From NCBI RefSeq assembly GCF_054482595.1, contig NZ_CM137008.1: a stretch of DNA of 64,000 nucleotides, one strand, 5' to 3'. The notes under the pieces were generated by a model. The model searched no databases and had not been told where the DNA came from. It was given only the letters and a program-made list of their open reading frames with translations. Shown here in pieces: positions 3,860 through 14,746 of the stretch (its first letter is position 1; each line of letters starts with the position of its first letter). Both the position numbers and the translations under genes were made by a program.

Positions 3860-4585
3860 TCACGCCTGACGGTGCGATGAGTAATGTATTTCATACTCTT
3901 CCCGGTAGAGAGTTTCCCCCCAAAGAACCGGTTTATTCTCAGCAGTCAAATAAGTATGTTGTCGTACCAGAATTGGGCGGGAACGCTTTATTTTCAGCTT
4001 CTGGGCCGCATCCCGGCTGGGCAGCGCCACATGAACCTGGTTGGCAATTGTCTGTATCTCTATGCGAAGTGCCTGCTCAAAAATGTTTTGCAACGCATGG
4101 ACTTCCAGTTCCTGCTTATCTATTTGCAGGGCAAGAATTGAAGGCATATAACGAATTTCGAATGCAATTGGCTGCTGATTTATCAAGCGCAACCTTAACA
4201 GCCGATGGATGCTCTCTTTGCCTGATAACATCAGTTTTGTCCGTAAGAGTTCTGACGTTGAGACAGGTGCGAATTCGACGAGTTGATATTCGAGGTGTTT
4301 GTCGACACCAACCAGATCTTTTTCAAAAAATCCAAGAGATTGCGTATCCATTACGGTGATAATGGAAGGTTTTTTAACGAAGGTTCCACGTCCCCGAATG
4401 CGTTCAATCAATCCATCCGTAAGAAGACCCTGCATCGCATGGACCACTGTCGCTCGGGTGGTATTAAATTGGGCTGCAAGTTCGTTTTCAGAAGGTAAGC
4501 GTTCGCCTTGTTTATATACATTTTGTGCTATTCCATTGCGTAATGCTTCTCTGATCTGCAGGTAAATTGGCAAATTGCGATGCAT
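3860..4585 (-). CDS. GntR-family (HutC/UTRA-type) transcriptional regulator, 241 aa
   Basis: N-terminal winged helix YKQGERLPSENELAAQFNTTRATVVHAMQGLLTDGLIERIRGRGTFV, followed by a UTRA-like C-terminal half. It is divergent from the operon that starts at 4708. Confidence 0.85.
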   Translation of the reverse strand: MHRNLPIYLQIREALRNGIAQNVYKQGERLPSENELAAQFNTTRATVVHAMQGLLTDGLIERIRGRGTFVKKPSIITVMDTQSLGFFEKDLVGVDKHLEYQLVEFAPVSTSELLRTKLMLSGKESIHRLLRLRLINQQPIAFEIRYMPSILALQIDKQELEVHALQNIFEQALRIEIQTIANQVHVALPSRDAAQKLKIKRSRPILVRQHTYLTAENKPVLWGETLYREEYEIHYSSHRQA

Positions 4586-4608
4586 GTCAAATTAATCCTT
4601 CATTCTAA

Positions 4609-4630
4609 GTTGCATAGTCAACTATACAAC
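4609..4630. promoter_or_regulatory. Candidate GntR operator: 22-bp palindrome in the divergent promoter gap
   Basis: GTTGCATAGT-CA-ACTATACAAC (9 of 10 arm positions complementary) in the 122-bp gap between the GntR start (4585) and the amidohydrolase start (4708). It fits the generic GT-N-AC architecture of GntR operators. Confidence 0.45.
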
Positions 4631-4707
4631 TTCAAGGGTGACGGTATGTCATTTTAGCAGATATCACCTTCAGGTGTGGTCAGTTAAACATAAATGAGTT
4701 AGAGAAA

Positions 4708-10709: not shown

Positions 10710-11261
10710 ATGCACCTGCTTCCTGAACTCGCCAGCCACCATGCGGTGTCAATTCCCGAGCTGCTCGTCAGCCGGGATGAAAGGCAAGCACGGCAACACG
10801 CCTGGCTCAAGCGCCATCCTGTTCCACTGGTCTCCTTTACCGTGGTTGCGCCTGGGCCGATTAAAGACAGCGAGGTCACACGCCGAATTTTTAATCATGG
10901 CGTGACAGCCTTGCGTGCCTTAGCCGCAAAACAGGGCTGGCAAATTCAGGAGCAGGCTGCACTGGTTTCCGCCAGCGGGCCGGAGGGCATGTTGAGCATT
11001 GCCGCCCCGGCTCGCGACCTCAAGCTCGCCACCATTGAGCTTGAACATAATCATCCTCTCGGGCGGTTATGGGATATCGATGTCCTGACGCCCGAAGGCG
11101 ACATTCTCTCCCGCCGCGATTATTCACTGCCGCCTCGCCGCTGCCTGTTGTGCGAGCAAAGCGCAGCTGTTTGCGCGCGTGGAAAAACCCATCAACTGAC
11201 CGATTTACTCAACCGCATGGAGGCGCTGCTGAACGATGTCGATGCCTGCAACGTCAACTAA
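10710..11261 (+). CDS. citX: Apo-citrate lyase phosphoribosyl-dephospho-CoA transferase, 183 aa
   Basis: [30 protein letters not shown]..., the same length as E. coli CitX. It starts 3 bp after citF. Confidence 0.9.
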
Positions 11262-12123
11262 AACCACAAAGCTTGCGACGTCATTAATCGATGAGTACGC
11301 CCTGCTGGGCTGGCGCGCCATGCTGACTGAAGTCAATCTGTCACCGAAACCAGGCCTCGTGGATCGGATTAACTGCGGTGCGCATAAAGATATGGCGCTG
11401 GAAGATTTTCACCGCAGCGCGCTGGCGATTCAGGGCTGGTTACCCCGTTTCATTGAATTTGGTGCCTGTAGTGCAGAAATGGCACCGGAAGCGGTACTCC
11501 ACGGATTACGCCCAATTGGTATGGCTTGCGAAGGTGATATGTTCCGCGCCACTGCGGGCGTAAACACGCATAAAGGCAGCATTTTTTCTTTAGGGCTGCT
11601 ATGTGCGGCAATTGGCCGTTTGCTTCAGCTCAACCAGCCGGTAACGCCAACAACCGTATGTTCTACGGCGGCAAGTTTCTGCCGTGGCCTGACCGATCGT
11701 GAACTGCGTACCAATAATTCACAACTGACGGCAGGTCAACGGTTGTACCAGCAGCTAGGCCTTACCGGCGCACGCGGTGAAGCCGAAGCGGGTTATCCAC
11801 TGGTGATCAACCACGCCTTGCCGCATTACCTCACTCTGCTGGATCAGGGATTAGATCCTGAACTGGCATTGCTCGATACCTTGCTCCTACTGATGGCTAC
11901 CAACGGCGATACCAACGTTGCATCGCGCGGTGGCGAGGGGGGCCTGCGCTGGCTACAGCGCGAGGCGCAAACATTATTGCAAAAAGGGGGCATCCGAACC
12001 CTCGCCGATCTCGATTATCTCCGGCAGTTCGACAGGGAGTGTATCGAACGAAATCTCAGTCCAGGCGGCAGTGCCGATTTGCTAATTGTCACCTGGTTTT
12101 TAGCGTCCCTAACCGGGCGCTGA
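11236..12123 (+). CDS. citG: Triphosphoribosyl-dephospho-CoA synthase, 295 aa
   Basis: [26 protein letters not shown]... is E. coli CitG. The C-terminus ends [13 protein letters not shown], whereas I recall LILTWFLAQI* in K-12. It overlaps citX by 26 nt, as in the native operon. Confidence 0.9.
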
Positions 12124-12148
12124 ATCATTAATATATCCGGAGTTAACT

Positions 12149-14746
12149 ATGTTAAAAGAATACCGTAAGCATGTAGCTGAGCGTGCCGCTGAGGGGATTG
12201 CGCCCAAACCCCTGGATGCAAACCAAATGGCCGCGCTTGTAGAGCTGCTGAAAAACCCGCCCGCGGGCGAAGAAGAATTCCTGTTAGATCTGTTAACCAA
12301 CCGTGTTCCCCCTGGCGTTGATGAAGCCGCCTATGTCAAAGCAGGCTTCCTGGCTGCTGTCGCCAAAGGTGAAGCCAAATCCCCACTGCTGACACCGGAA
12401 AAGGCCATCGAACTGCTGGGCACCATGCAGGGTGGTTACAACATTCATCCGCTGATCGACGCGCTGGATGATGCCAAACTGGCACCGATCGCTGCCAAAG
12501 CACTTTCTCACACGCTGCTGATGTTCGATAACTTCTATGACGTAGAAGAGAAAGCCAAAGCAGGCAACGAATATGCGAAGCAGGTAATGCAGTCCTGGGC
12601 GGATGCCGAATGGTTCCTGAATCGCCCGGCGCTGGCTGAAAAACTGACCGTTACCGTCTTCAAAGTCACTGGCGAAACCAACACCGATGACCTCTCTCCG
12701 GCACCGGATGCGTGGTCACGCCCGGATATCCCACTGCACGCGCTGGCGATGCTGAAAAACGCCCGTGAAGGCATCGAGCCAGATCAGCCTGGTGTTGTTG
12801 GCCCGATCAAACAGATTGAAGCTCTGCAACAGAAAGGTTTCCCGCTGGCGTACGTCGGTGACGTTGTGGGTACGGGGTCATCGCGTAAATCCGCCACGAA
12901 CTCCGTTCTGTGGTTTATGGGCGATGATATTCCACATGTGCCGAACAAACGCGGCGGTGGTTTGTGCCTCGGCGGTAAAATTGCACCCATCTTCTTTAAC
13001 ACGATGGAAGATGCGGGTGCACTGCCAATCGAAGTCGACGTCTCTAACCTGAACATGGGCGACGTAATTGACGTTTACCCGTACAAAGGTGAAGTGCGTA
13101 ACCACGAAACCGGCGAACTGCTGGCAACCTTCGAACTGAAAACCGACGTGCTGATTGATGAAGTGCGTGCTGGCGGCCGTATTCCGCTGATTATCGGGCG
13201 TGGCCTGACCACCAAAGCGCGTGAAGCACTTGGCCTGCCGCACAGTGATGTGTTCCGTCAGGCGAAAGATGTCGCTGAGAGCGATCGCGGCTTCTCGCTG
13301 GCGCAGAAAATGGTAGGTCGTGCCTGCGGTGTGAAAGGCATTCGTCCGGGCGCGTACTGCGAACCGAAAATGACTTCTGTAGGTTCACAGGACACCACCG
13401 GCCCGATGACCCGTGATGAACTGAAAGACCTGGCGTGCCTGGGCTTCTCGGCTGACCTGGTGATGCAGTCTTTCTGCCACACCGCGGCGTATCCGAAACC
13501 AGTTGACGTGAATACGCACCACACGCTGCCGGACTTCATTATGAACCGTGGCGGTGTGTCGCTGCGTCCGGGTGACGGCGTAATCCACTCCTGGCTGAAC
13601 CGTATGCTGCTGCCGGATACCGTCGGTACCGGTGGTGATTCCCATACCCGTTTCCCGATCGGCATTTCTTTCCCGGCAGGCTCCGGTCTGGTGGCATTTG
13701 CTGCTGCAACTGGCGTCATGCCGCTGGATATGCCGGAATCCGTTCTGGTGCGCTTCAAAGGCAAAATGCAGCCGGGCATCACCCTGCGCGATTTGGTACA
13801 CGCTATTCCGCTGTATGCGATCAAACAAGGTCTGCTGACCGTTGAGAAGAAAGGCAAGAAAAACATCTTCTCTGGCCGCATCCTGGAAATTGAAGGTCTG
13901 CCGGATCTGAAAGTTGAGCAGGCCTTTGAGCTGACCGATGCGTCCGCCGAGCGTTCTGCTGCCGGTTGTACCATCAAGCTGAACAAAGAACCGATCATCG
14001 AATACCTGAACTCCAACATCGTCCTGCTGAAGTGGATGATCGCGGAAGGTTACGGCGATCATCGTACCCTGGAACGCCGTATTCAGGGCATGGAAAAATG
14101 GCTGGCGAATCCTGAGCTGCTGGAAGCCGATGCAGATGCGGAATACGCGGCAGTGATCGACATCGATCTGGCGGATATCAAAGAGCCAATCCTCTGTGCT
14201 CCGAACGACCCGGATGACGCGCGTCCGCTGTCTGCGGTACAGGGCGAGAAGATCGACGAAGTGTTTATCGGTTCCTGCATGACCAACATCGGTCACTTCC
14301 GTGCTGCGGGTAAACTGCTGGATGCGCATAAAGGCCAGCTGCCGACCCGCCTGTGGGTGGCACCGCCAACCCGTATGGACGCCGCGCAGTTGACCGAAGA
14401 AGGCTACTACAGCGTCTTCGGTAAGAGTGGTGCGCGTATCGAGATCCCTGGCTGTTCCCTGTGTATGGGTAACCAGGCGCGTGTAGCAGACGGTGCGACG
14501 GTGGTTTCCACCTCTACCCGTAACTTTCCGAACCGTTTGGGTACTGGCGCGAATGTCTTCCTGGCTTCTGCGGAACTGGCCGCTGTTGCGGCGCTGATTG
14601 GCAAACTGCCGACGCCGGAAGAGTACCAGACCTACGTGGCGCAGGTAGATAAAACCGCCGTTGATACTTACCGTTATCTGAACTTCAACCAGCTTTCTCA
14701 GTATACCGAGAAAGCGGATAGGGTGATTTTTCCTAGTGTGGTTTAA
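12149..14746 (+). CDS. acnB: Aconitate hydratase B (bifunctional aconitase / 2-methylisocitrate dehydratase), full length 865 aa
   Basis: It is collinear with E. coli AcnB over the entire length, with a few substitutions (MLKEY versus MLEEY; tail [12 protein letters not shown] versus remembered EKADGVIFQTAV*). The three Fe-S cysteine regions are present ([26 protein letters not shown]). GGAG lies 8 nt upstream, and the start is 25 bp after the citG stop. Confidence 0.92.

Follow-up and report, generated by a model that had tools for sequence, protein, structure and literature searches.

Gene content and layout of the locus

In a window of 64,000 nucleotides of contig NZ_CM137008.1 (assembly GCF_054482595.1), we examined a block carrying a divergent regulator gene followed by genes for a hydrolase, a carrier, citrate lyase and aconitase. 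Nine genes run on the plus strand, and the count of ten given in the preliminary description is reached only with the divergent GntR gene included. The distances between the nine, recomputed from the gene coordinates, match exactly those stated there (31, 5, 14, -4, 10, 3, -26 and 25 bp). Megablast of the window against two island variants (L018 and L019) placed the limits of the block at 3628-3859 on the left and 14966-15027 on the right, with approximately 11.3 kb common to the variants. The features are as follows.

3628..3859, no strand: left block end, with a G/C-rich hairpin (3786-3810) downstream of the regulator gene
3860..4585, minus: GntR-family regulator, HutC subfamily, HTH and UTRA effector domain (Pfam GntR 1.6e-18, UTRA 8.3e-23)
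4586..4707, no strand: divergent control region, 122 bp, with blocks conserved in Enterobacter and L020
4607..4632, no strand: palindromic operator candidate, 12-nt arms, 11/12 complementary
4708..5505, plus: hydrolase of the LigI/COG3618 clade, 265 aa (Pfam Amidohydro_2 8.7e-44)
5537..6886, plus: MFS anion carrier, OPA/ACS-like, 449 aa (Pfam MFS_1 2e-48)
6892..7947, plus: citC, citrate lyase ligase, second copy (Pfam Citrate_ly_lig 9.4e-85; 99.1% aa identity to K-12)
7962..8258, plus: citD, citrate lyase acyl carrier protein, second copy (Pfam ACP (MdcD) 1.2e-28; 100% aa to K-12)
8255..9163, plus: citE, citrate lyase beta subunit, second copy (Pfam HpcH_HpaI 6.4e-89; 100% aa to K-12)
9174..10706, plus: citF, citrate lyase alpha subunit, second copy (Pfam CitF 2.6e-281; 99.2% aa to K-12)
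10710..11261, plus: citX, holo-ACP synthase, second copy (Pfam CitX 7.2e-54; 98.4% aa to K-12)
11236..12123, plus: citG, triphosphoribosyl-dephospho-CoA synthase, second copy (Pfam CitG 4.7e-84)
12124..12148, plus: citG-acnB spacer, 25 bp, with GGAG ribosome-binding site (CCGGAGTTAACTATG at 12137-12151)
12149..14746, plus: acnB, aconitase B, second copy, full length, 865 aa (Pfam Aconitase_B_N, Aconitase_2_N, Aconitase)
14814..14848, plus: likely operon terminator, a perfect 16-bp stem with a 3-nt loop, then TTGTATTG (MFE z = -3.3)

The regulator is 85.5% identical to its Enterobacter counterpart, and none of the NCBIfam equivalogs scanned scored above its cut-off. In the control region, the 22-bp palindrome described at 4609-4630 is present, inside a larger repeat, AAGTTGCATAGT-CA-ACTATACAACTT, at 4607-4632. 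Its core, GTTGCATAGTCAAC, lies at 4609-4622, and the core motif GTTGnATAGTCAAC occurs once or twice in the matching intergenic region of Enterobacter, K. oxytoca, S. salamae, E. fergusonii, C. amalonaticus, L020 and L021. A scan of the 122 bp for a sigma-70 promoter, at 9 of 12 consensus positions, returned no match. Consistent with the claim that no terminator precedes the end of acnB, terminator-like matches within the operon occur at the level of chance (12 versus 12.7 ± 3.6 in shuffles), and the hairpin that follows acnB, identified by RNA folding, falls within the conserved block. The acnB start codon is indeed preceded by a GGAG of its own, and the citG-acnB junction of Enterobacter is the same (ATCAGGAGTTAATTGTGTTAAAAGAATACCG).

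The hydrolase and the carrier

Among solved structures, the hydrolase is closest to 2ffi (1e-67) and 4i6k (7e-59), followed by LigI (4.5e-24), whose catalytic positions (HxH, His, Asp) it retains. An AF2 model (pLDDT 95.5) superimposes on 4i6k and 2ffi with TM scores of 0.96 and 0.93, on LigI and COG3618 entries with 0.81-0.84, and on decarboxylases with at most 0.68. To our knowledge, the characterised members of COG3618 are lactonases: LigI, L-fucono-1,5-lactonase and 4-sulfomuconolactone hydrolase. The last of these is also the sole NCBIfam match of the protein, far under its cut-off. We assign the enzyme to the metal-independent type of amidohydrolase in the LigI/COG3618 clade, and "lactonase" is to be read at the level of that clade, as identity to LigI is only about 25% and the nearest solved homologues carry no assigned function. 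We propose that it is a tricarboxylate-lactone hydrolase. Its counterparts in the enteric modules with an MFS carrier (Enterobacter and L020) are 70-75% identical, and its dN is the highest among the ten genes, while dS against Enterobacter is saturated.

The carrier had been described as ACS-type. Its closest family is instead OPA (PgtP/GlpT/UhpT; 7e-32), with ACS second (2e-22), both below the curated cut-off, and its best solved relative is SLC37A4. Orthologues with 79-92% identity adjoin the hydrolase in Enterobacter, L020 and L021, and we propose that the protein imports or exchanges the operon substrate.

Of 50 environmental loci, up to 44 have an anion carrier beside the hydrolase (34 MFS, 4 CitMHS, 6 Tct). 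Mostly the hydrolase has no other enzyme alongside, aerobes typically pairing it with carrier and regulator alone; where another enzyme does adjoin it, this belongs to the PrpB/ICL lyase family in 6 loci and is an aconitase in 3. From this adjacency, the usual lack of a partner enzyme and the kind of partner found where there is one, the product of the hydrolase is probably a central tricarboxylate. In L022, L062 and L084 the hydrolase is accompanied by an AcnD-like aconitase, PrpF and a PrpB-family lyase. The link between aconitase and hydrolase is weak outside Enterobacterales, where aconitase adjoins the hydrolase in 3 of 50 loci and citrate lyase in none of the 50.

Second copies of the citrate lyase and aconitase genes

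The preliminary description implied that the housekeeping cit and acnB genes had been relocated. This is incorrect: the genes of the block are extra copies, and the native loci (dpiBA|citCDEFXG-citT and yacH-acnB-yacL) are kept in the same genome. As had been stated, the block lacks citT and the K-12 dpiB-citC promoter region, and homology to the K-12 cit locus spans only 6898-12104. The first nine or so codons of citC are not K-12-like and partially match Enterobacter, and the last 15 or so codons of citG are of the operon type, this 3′ end resembling that of the Enterobacter operon.

Between these ends, the island copies are approximately 96-98% identical to native alleles, and their proteins 98-100% identical to those of K-12. 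For acnB the figures are 99.1% (aa) and 96.6% (nt) against K-12, and 96.3-97.4% (nt) against native alleles sampled across more than 5,400 E. coli genomes; the 16 differences between the citE genes are all synonymous. All genes are intact in the three variants examined, with dN/dS of 0-0.16 against native alleles (0.04 for citF, 0.03 for acnB), and by this measure the island genes are under strong purifying selection. Diversity among the island variants is 2-5 times higher in the cit/acnB part than in the unique part (Fisher p 4e-3 to 1e-12), and more than half of the variant bases equal the native K-12 state. The island copies are thus apparently exchanging sequence with native alleles, although part of the excess diversity may stem from differing constraint or composition instead of gene conversion.

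Occurrence in E. coli and in other enteric bacteria

Among 5,426 complete E. coli genomes, 30 contain the full 10,901 bp in one contiguous piece; these 30 are independent and come from several countries and hosts. The unique part occurs in 32 genomes (0.6%), chromosomal every time. It sits in IS-rich islands with many pseudogenes, and the flanking elements vary by strain (ISEc38, IS66, IS100). We read the block as a rare, IS-mobilised unit of 11 kb. Where the MFS gene gives way to citC, GC content rises from some 45% to some 56%.

Enterobacter, Citrobacter amalonaticus, Salmonella salamae and Klebsiella oxytoca share this architecture: GntR|hydrolase-carrier-citCDEF(X)G, joined by oadGAB, by an acnB placed immediately behind citG, or by both. 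In Enterobacter, collinearity with the window extends from gntR to the end of citG and some 150 bp into acnB (79% nt identity), with the same MFS-citC and citG-RBS-acnB junctions. The operon acnB itself has been lost there, so the aconitase step is dispensable at least in Enterobacter. C. amalonaticus carries GntR|hydrolase-CitMHS-citCDEFXG-acnB-oadGA, S. salamae the same order without citX in line, and K. oxytoca hydrolase-CitMHS-citCDEFG-oadGAB, immediately upstream of which lies an AcnB-like gene. Taken together, citCDEFXG and oadGAB have the layout of the classical gene set for citrate fermentation in Klebsiella. In both L020 and L021 the module is located at an acnB-yacL locus. Across these modules the carriers belong to two unrelated families (MFS and CitMHS), a non-orthologous replacement, and the citrate lyases to two different lineages, and the GC step at the carrier/citC border was found in every enteric module compared. 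In K. oxytoca and E. fergusonii a larger cluster adjoins the module; it encodes a second lactonase (PF10282), two aconitases of the AcnA/D type, a CitMHS carrier, PrpF and an Iso_dh enzyme.

Discussion

The proposal of a single functional unit under GntR control, made up of carrier, ring-opening hydrolase, aconitase and citrate lyase, is supported by the conserved gene order, the shared operator, the replacement of the carrier and use of two citrate-lyase lineages within that order, and the intact genes under purifying selection, and we hold with high confidence that the ten genes are one selected unit. That the hydrolase acts as a lactonase feeding aconitase and citrate lyase is probable, with appreciable room for doubt. 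Isocitrate lactone or isocitrate as the physiological substrate is our tentative choice, at somewhat short of even chances. On balance, the sequence data slightly favour reading the block as an IS-mobilised catabolic operon that would provide a self-contained, separately regulated fermentation of a tricarboxylate lactone. We located no description of such an operon in the literature, in agreement with the preliminary description.

AcnB interconverts citrate, cis-aconitate and isocitrate, and isocitrate forms a stable gamma-lactone. Isocitric lactone is reported from plant, wine and urine metabolomes. In the proposed mechanism, the HutC-type regulator would bind the palindrome at 4607-4632 and repress the divergent promoters until a substrate-related effector occupies its UTRA domain. 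The substrate, with (2R,3S)-isocitrate lactone as first candidate, would enter through the MFS carrier, and the LigI-like hydrolase would open its ring to give an isocitrate-type hydroxy-tricarboxylate. The operon aconitase B would isomerise this product via cis-aconitate to citrate, which CitDEF, activated by CitC, CitX and CitG, would cleave to oxaloacetate and acetate. Oxaloacetate would then be reduced to succinate in E. coli, and decarboxylated to pyruvate by the linked oadGAB products in Citrobacter, Salmonella and Klebsiella. The resident cit genes depend on DpiAB and citrate, and resident acnB is repressed anaerobically. Sequence comparison suggests that the private copies would answer to a new inducer and may exchange sequence with the resident ones by gene conversion, harmlessly because both perform the same chemistry. 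Counting against the route, isocitrate released in aerobes would need no aconitase whatsoever.

The same architecture and logic could serve another lactone, such as that of hydroxycitrate (garcinia or hibiscus acid), allo- or erythro-isocitrate, or methyl- or homo-isocitrate, the ring-opened acid being funnelled via aconitase and citrate lyase to citrate or oxaloacetate. Stereochemistry is not fixed by sequence, the PF10282 lactonase and AcnA/D-type aconitases of the K. oxytoca and E. fergusonii cluster suggest a family of related tricarboxylate lactones or stereoisomers, and the AcnD-like aconitase, PrpF and PrpB-family lyase partners in L022, L062 and L084 point the same way. However, the near identity of the E. 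coli Cit and AcnB proteins to the housekeeping enzymes, together with the apparent exchange, indicates that the later steps are ordinary AcnB and citrate-lyase chemistry, and a hydrolase without partner in most aerobes fits a central metabolite as product, which hydroxycitrate is not; we consider another lactone unlikely, yet the most credible of the alternatives. A little less likely again is a differently regulated cassette for fermenting citrate, isocitrate or aconitate, in which the carrier imports the free tricarboxylate and the hydrolase is accessory (salvaging spontaneous lactone, for example, or cleaving an ester or anhydride) or has some unrelated compound as its substrate. Such a cassette would accommodate the di- or tricarboxylate-type carriers (CitMHS/MatC, Tct, OPA/ACS-like MFS) and the resemblance to the classical Klebsiella set, and AcnB alone could take isocitrate or cis-aconitate to citrate with the hydrolase unneeded. 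Yet no member of the module is more constant than the hydrolase, which is always first past the operator, kept even where only a carrier accompanies it and where the carrier family is exchanged, and well conserved within the enteric MFS-type module despite its high dN.

The IS-rich, pseudogene-laden surroundings, the rarity of the block and its GC step would suit an accidental IS-driven mosaic, with a regulator/hydrolase/carrier trio of sugar-acid type beside passenger cit and acnB duplicates. This explanation is close to refuted, and we regard it as very improbable: Enterobacter has the same junctions at 79% nucleotide identity, the gene order recurs in three further genera, where the carriers differ and the citrate lyase is of another lineage, all enteric modules share the GC step, gaps of 5 and 25 bp are too short for independent control, and every gene is intact with dN/dS no higher than 0.16. 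As for an assembly chimera joining unrelated chromosomal regions, all that speaks for it is the unusual composition; an assembler could in principle be misled by the roughly 97% identity that cit and acnB share with other loci of the genome. The native loci nevertheless stand at separate places in the same assembly, and the junction sequences differ from theirs. We reject a chimera, whose probability is negligible, on the separate native loci and on the identical 10.9-kb arrangement in the 30 independent complete genomes.

If the preferred reading, fermentation of a tricarboxylate lactone by a dedicated operon, is correct, E. coli and other enteric bacteria would probably use a seemingly undescribed pathway to ferment an acid of plant or host origin, for example isocitrate lactone.

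Gene organization and control region

ORF calls, Pfam and the RefSeq annotation of a genome identical over the block give a consistent layout, which comprises the following features.

3860-4585, - strand: GntR/UTRA regulator (Pfam GntR 1.6e-18, UTRA 8.3e-23)
4586-4707: control region of 122 bp
4607-4632: palindrome AAGTTGCATAGT-CA-ACTATACAACTT, candidate operator
4708-5505, + strand: Amidohydro_2 hydrolase
5537-6886, + strand: MFS carrier
6892-12123, + strand: citC, citD, citE, citF, citX and citG (Pfam 1e-28 to 1e-281 each)
12149-14746, + strand: acnB, full length, 865 aa (Pfam Aconitase_B_N, Aconitase_2_N and Aconitase)
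14814-14848: hairpin with a perfect 16-bp stem, 3' of acnB

In line with the preliminary description, the gene coordinates reproduce exactly all eight of its spacings (31, 5, 14, -4, 10, 3, -26 and 25 bp), the upstream palindrome is present in the sequence, and the GntR/HutC regulator has an N-terminal GntR winged HTH and a C-terminal UTRA effector domain by Pfam. Its count of ten + strand genes needs adjustment, as the + strand holds nine and ten is reached only by counting the divergent regulator. It had also placed no terminator before the end of acnB. Within the operon, terminator-like and promoter-like matches indeed occur at or below chance, gaps do not exceed 31 bp, and a strong hairpin is found only 3' of acnB. 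A consensus scan of 4586-4707 found no promoter, and an Rfam search of 3000-16000 matched no riboswitch or leader RNA.

The cit and acnB genes are second copies

All six citCDEFXG genes (ligase, ACP, beta and alpha subunits, holo-ACP synthase, prosthetic-group synthase) are intact, so the citrate lyase set is complete as originally read. The same holds for the full-length acnB, whose N-terminal HEAT-like, swivel and catalytic aconitase domains are all present. The island Cit and AcnB proteins are 98-100% identical in amino acid sequence to those of K-12 (AcnB 99.1%), and the Cit proteins lack internal stops. At the DNA level, cit is 97.9% identical to K-12, gap-free across 5,207 bp, and acnB 96.6%; sampled native E. 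coli acnB alleles are all 96.3-97.4% identical to the island allele, none closer. Strain Santai matches the window at 100% identity across the block and also has native yacH-acnB-yacL and, separate from the block, native dpiBA/citCDEFXG-citT.

Homology to the native locus starts at 6898, about two codons into citC, with mismatches clustered up to 6918, and stops at 12104, inside citG and short of the gene end. As this is the only K-12 homology in the cit part, the reported absence of dpiAB, the native citC promoter and citT is confirmed; the MFS gene lies 5 bp upstream of citC and acnB 25 bp downstream of citG. Native homology is back from the acnB start codon itself, which has changed from GTG to ATG and now follows a new GGAG, the one that had been noted at first reading; this homology runs out about 23 bp past the acnB stop. 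With dN/dS of 0-0.16 and dS of 0.03-0.13 for the cit/acnB copies, and all ten block genes intact in the three variants examined, the island copies are kept by selection.

We compared the three island variants pairwise.

Pairwise differences among three island variants
Unique 3.3 kb: 0.55-0.64%
cit core: 1.1-2.1%
acnB: 1.5-3.0%

Unique and duplicated parts differ in all three comparisons (Fisher p = 1e-11, 4e-3 and 8e-13), and among strains the island cit/acnB segment (6892-14746) is 2-5 times as diverse as the adjacent unique genes. More than half of its variant bases are in the K-12 native state. Against the host's own native cit, identical runs reach 423 bp, compared with about 247 bp expected under an even spread of mismatches. 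Moreover, dS is several-fold different between block genes, and divergence from native alleles peaks at the ends of the gene clusters, where one flank is without homology. Together, these patterns suggest that gene conversion has recurred between the island copies and the native ones, and differing constraint may also contribute to them.

Distribution and genomic setting

The complete 10.9-kb block forms one uninterrupted stretch in 30 of the 5,426 complete E. coli genomes (0.6%), and the unique GntR-hydrolase-MFS part is found in 32, at least 99.5% identical and chromosomal in every case. The preliminary description had raised the prospect of an assembly chimera and asked how far the junctions spread; the intact arrangement in 30 independent complete genomes, together with the separate native loci within the same assembly, rules a chimera out. 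Carrier isolates include human urinary and gut E. coli, as well as strains from poultry, mink, dog, gull, seawater and wastewater. The conserved limits run from about 3628 to 14966-15027. The IS elements on its flanks vary by strain: the window and Santai have remnants of ISEc38 and IS66, a urinary isolate has IS100 and an ST38 strain has IS66. A search for transposon-type terminal inverted or direct repeats of the block found none, and no plasmid carriage was seen in E. coli. The only relatives in the plasmid collection are on megaplasmids of plant- and insect-associated Burkholderiaceae and Ralstonia, and on similar megaplasmids, at less than 60% identity.

The surrounding window is a large mosaic island, terminated by tyrosine integrase and toxin-antitoxin genes. 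After the integrase (58163-59428, - strand) come ParDE, CbtA/CbeA, RadC and antirestriction genes, and this region probably marks an island boundary. Compared with Santai (NZ_CP007592.1), the operon is unchanged and an offset of about 200 bp appears downstream, beyond about 30000; the window therefore comes from a closely related, non-identical strain. A UxaA-family hydrolase gene (16660-17827), split into two ORFs and annotated as frameshifted with an internal stop, adjoins agaR and aldolase gene fragments; decay is thus widespread in the island surrounding the intact operon. Further cargo includes a malX-like PTS IIBC gene, a MalY/PatB-family gene and then a 1.9-kb gene annotated "enterotoxin" (19415-24076, + strand), and an additional ompC-like porin gene (47396-48508, + strand). 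An additional C4-dicarboxylate carrier, dcuC, accompanied by a 436-aa amidohydrolase and a divergent LysR regulator (26349-29996) and with IS66 fragments on either side, looks like another accessory organic-acid module of the same island. By annotation, a compact cluster of a GRP-family sugar transporter, a fuculose-phosphate-aldolase-like gene, mtnA and mtnK (42033-46197, - strand) resembles a methylthioribose/5-deoxyribose salvage set.

Conservation in other enterics

Genomic contexts of hydrolase homologues, taken from exact-protein look-ups, revealed related loci in several genera.

Related enteric loci
Enterobacter sp.: collinear with the window from gntR to citG, plus about 150 bp of decayed acnB; 79% nucleotide identity
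Citrobacter amalonaticus: GntR / hydrolase-CitMHS-citCDEFXG-acnB-oadGA
Salmonella salamae: citX, GntR / hydrolase-CitMHS-citCDEFG-acnB-oadGA
Klebsiella oxytoca: AcnB-like, GntR / hydrolase-CitMHS-citCDEFG-oadGAB
E. fergusonii: GntR / hydrolase-CitMHS, with an aconitase/PrpF cluster close by
L020 and L021 (metagenomic Enterobacterales-like contigs): module directly adjoining acnB-yacL; MFS 79-87% identical to that of the island

The core of the candidate operator, GTTGnATAGTCAAC, is kept in seven other loci from different genera (Enterobacter, C. amalonaticus, S. salamae, K. oxytoca, E. fergusonii, L020 and L021), although their regulators are just 52-86% identical. Carriers in these modules belong to two unrelated families, MFS and CitMHS, and the citrate lyases to two lineages, E. 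coli-type and Klebsiella-type (CitF 75% identical). Such conservation of order and operator with non-orthologous replacement of parts is a classical signature of functional coupling. The architecture is old and conserved across enterics, and we hold it very probable that selection maintains the ten genes as a single functional unit.

A simpler explanation would be a recent, plain duplication that brought E. coli genes together by chance. The junctions speak against it: the MFS-end/citC-start and citG-end/RBS/acnB-start junctions of Enterobacter, at 79% identity, are the same as in the window, acnB begins M-L-K-E in both as opposed to M-L-E-E in K-12, and the gene order recurs in other genera. 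Nor does the jump in GC content from the first three genes to cit/acnB prove recent chimerism, as every genus shows it. Both proposals are hence rejected.

The Enterobacter operon is intact apart from acnB, of which a remnant of about 150 bp with an in-frame TAG lies 3' of citG (9069-9240 in locus L007, about 17424-17594 in L006), indicating that the operon's aconitase copy was lost in that lineage. S. salamae (L013) and K. oxytoca (L009) share 95-98% identity in the hydrolase, the carrier, CitC, CitE and CitF, as against 66% in GntR, 56% in CitG and 72% in AcnB. Each operon is a mosaic of the other, which points to recombination between versions from different genera. In K. oxytoca (L009, 1-8965) and E. 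fergusonii (L012, 14448-20795), a second cluster lies beside the GntR/hydrolase module. It combines a PF10282 beta-propeller lactonase and a CitMHS carrier with two aconitases (645-648 aa and 754 aa), PrpF and an Iso_dh-family dehydrogenase, as well as a divergent AcnB-like protein that is 73% identical to K-12 AcnB. This cluster may represent a second, more elaborate tricarboxylate-lactone pathway.

Hydrolase and carrier

Among solved structures, the hydrolase is closest to 2ffi (1e-67) and 4i6k (7e-59), both labeled "probable PDC hydrolases", with LigI next (4.5e-24). Its AF2 model (pLDDT 95.5) has a (beta/alpha)8 amidohydrolase fold nearest to LigI-clade structures, with TM scores of 0.96 to 4i6k, 0.93 to 2ffi, 0.81-0.83 to LigI, 0.83-0.84 to 4dlf/4do7 (COG3618) and at most 0.68 to decarboxylases. 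The HMMER alignment with 4d8l pairs DTHAHVF with DAHCHVF, VVDHF with VIDHM and WGSDWPH with WGTDWPH. The catalytic HxH, His and Asp of LigI (His31, His33, His180 and Asp248) are kept as H6, H8, H155 and D223 and are invariant across 36 homologues. Characterised COG3618/LigI-clade members are lactonases. By fold and catalytic residues, the protein thus qualifies as a candidate lactonase of this clade.

More specific assignments fare less well. LigI proper shares the fold and catalytic residues, but identity is only about 25% and no ligJ or ligK lies nearby. The sole NCBIfam match, 4-sulfomuconolactone hydrolase (SlmHylase), falls far short at 137 bits against a cut-off of 500. The decarboxylase/hydratase branch of Amidohydro_2 is disfavored by both fold and sequence ranking. 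Our literature search found no published function for 2ffi or 4i6k. The ligand bound in 4i6k may be citrate, which carries no weight in this assignment.

The carrier is an anion-type MFS protein. It had been described as ACS-type, the family with models such as DgoT, GudP and ExuT, but the OPA exchangers (PgtP/GlpT/UhpT, SLC37A4) fit better and ACS comes second; neither cut-off is passed (OPA TIGR00881 7e-32, 111 bits against 408; ACS TIGR00893 2e-22, 80 against 395). Its best solved relative is SLC37A4.

Homologues of the hydrolase clade number in the thousands among Proteobacteria associated with plants and soil. Regulator and carrier are its only companions in Paraburkholderia, Pseudomonas and Ectopseudomonas. 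A metagenome scan yielded 80 loci at 43-55% identity, and neighbors were counted in the 50 with at least 8 kb of sequence. A carrier adjoins the hydrolase in up to 44 of these (34 MFS, 4 CitMHS, 6 Tct tricarboxylate transporter), a GntR/UTRA or a LysR regulator in 15 each, a PrpB/isocitrate-lyase-family lyase in 6 and an aconitase in 3, with citrate lyase or Oad in none of the 50. The prevalence of carrier and regulator alone suggests that a single hydrolytic step after uptake is usually enough in aerobes, and hence that the product is already a central metabolite. Where further enzymes are linked, they would act on isocitrate-type acids, and linkage to AcnB, citrate lyase and Oad is specific to facultatively anaerobic enterics.

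Discussion

In this study, we find comparative genomic support for the original core reading that carrier, hydrolase, aconitase and citrate lyase may work as a unit. Gene content, order and conservation are direct observations, from which we infer the metabolic flow. The GntR protein would repress at the palindrome and the carrier would import an anionic lactone, which the hydrolase would open to an isocitrate-type tricarboxylate. AcnB would turn this into citrate, citrate lyase would split citrate to oxaloacetate and acetate, and oxaloacetate would be removed by Oad, where present, or by the reductive C4 branch. We regard a route from lactone through aconitase to citrate lyase as fairly probable. 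The Cit and AcnB proteins of the E. coli block hardly differ from the housekeeping enzymes, so whatever follows the hydrolase must be standard aconitase and citrate-lyase chemistry. This leaves isocitrate, cis-aconitate or citrate as the hydrolase product. Among these candidates, isocitrate alone has a common stable lactone, and judging from paper titles, metabolome studies report isocitric lactone from plants, wine, Aloe, algae and human urine. Naming it specifically as the substrate is nonetheless a tentative step, which we would rate somewhat below an even chance.

Private copies of such genes make sense, as native cit requires DpiAB and external citrate and native acnB is down-regulated anaerobically. 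Relative to K-12 dpiBA/citCDEFXG-citT, the block keeps the six cit genes in the same order with identical spacings (14, -4, 10, 3, -26), and should end in the same reaction, with oxaloacetate and acetate formed from citrate. It differs in lacking DpiAB, the dpiB-citC promoter region and the CitT antiporter, in placing cit under a GntR-controlled region with hydrolase and MFS before and acnB after, and in being a mobile second copy in 0.6% of genomes. Citrate fermentation genes of the Klebsiella pneumoniae type comprise citCDEFG with citS-oadGAB-citAB. The K. oxytoca, S. salamae and C. amalonaticus operons likewise pair Klebsiella-type citCDEF(X)G with oadGAB, that is, citrate lyase with Na+-pumping oxaloacetate decarboxylase, but have CitMHS for CitS, a GntR/HutC repressor for CitAB and an extra LigI-like hydrolase; AcnB is a further addition in Salmonella and Citrobacter. 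The E. coli block lacks oad genes.

LigI, the 2-pyrone-4,6-dicarboxylate lactonase of Sphingobium SYK-6, and the COG3618 lactonases resemble the hydrolase in fold (TM 0.81-0.84) and catalytic HxH/His/Asp, and the LigI substrate is a two-carboxylate lactone with the charge pattern of isocitrate lactone; unlike LigI with its LigJ/LigK and protocatechuate-pathway setting, the hydrolase is partnered by aconitase and citrate lyase. The 2-methylcitrate cycle (acnD-prpF-prpB and acnB) also combines aconitase-family isomerisation of a hydroxy-tricarboxylate with subsequent C-C cleavage, and some hydrolase relatives lie in MFS-AcnD-like-PrpF-PrpB-like clusters. However, the window lacks prpC, prpD, prpB and prpF, cleavage in the block would be by ACP-dependent citrate lyase, and entry would be via a hydrolase rather than a synthase.

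The back end consists of E. coli/Klebsiella citrate-fermentation genes that are already known, while the HutC-type repressor, LigI-like hydrolase, new carrier and embedded acnB fall outside any described cit system. Consistent with the earlier view of an undescribed operon, our search for the cluster, an isocitrate lactonase and the RefSeq proteins returned no description in a literature that covers subscription papers incompletely, so that absence is no proof. It is likely that this is a new catabolic pathway built from known enzymes. That all elements hold jointly, namely an unrecognised isocitrate-lactone fermentation of Enterobacteriaceae (uptake, lactonase, AcnB, citrate lyase and, in some genera, Oad), a first physiological role for the 2ffi/4i6k clade of the LigI family, and a mobile cassette in E. 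coli whose private housekeeping genes stay close to the resident ones through recurrent gene conversion, is possible, but we lean slightly against the full combination.

In practical terms, second acnB and cit copies of 96-98% identity can mislead read mapping, MLST-like typing and analyses of recombination where a strain carries the block; they also provide a tractable setting in nature for the study of gene conversion between a mobile island and housekeeping genes of the core genome. If correct, our reading would explain the duplicate citrate-lyase and aconitase genes as ordinary enzymes made to respond to a new inducer. This would be a clear example from nature of regulation rewired through duplication, in which island and core genome evolve in concert, and a widespread, structurally solved enzyme clade (2ffi/4i6k) would gain a function. 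Enterobacteriaceae would then ferment isocitrate lactone, a metabolite of plants, diet and urine, adding a new catabolic pathway and nutrient niche for some of the best-studied bacteria.
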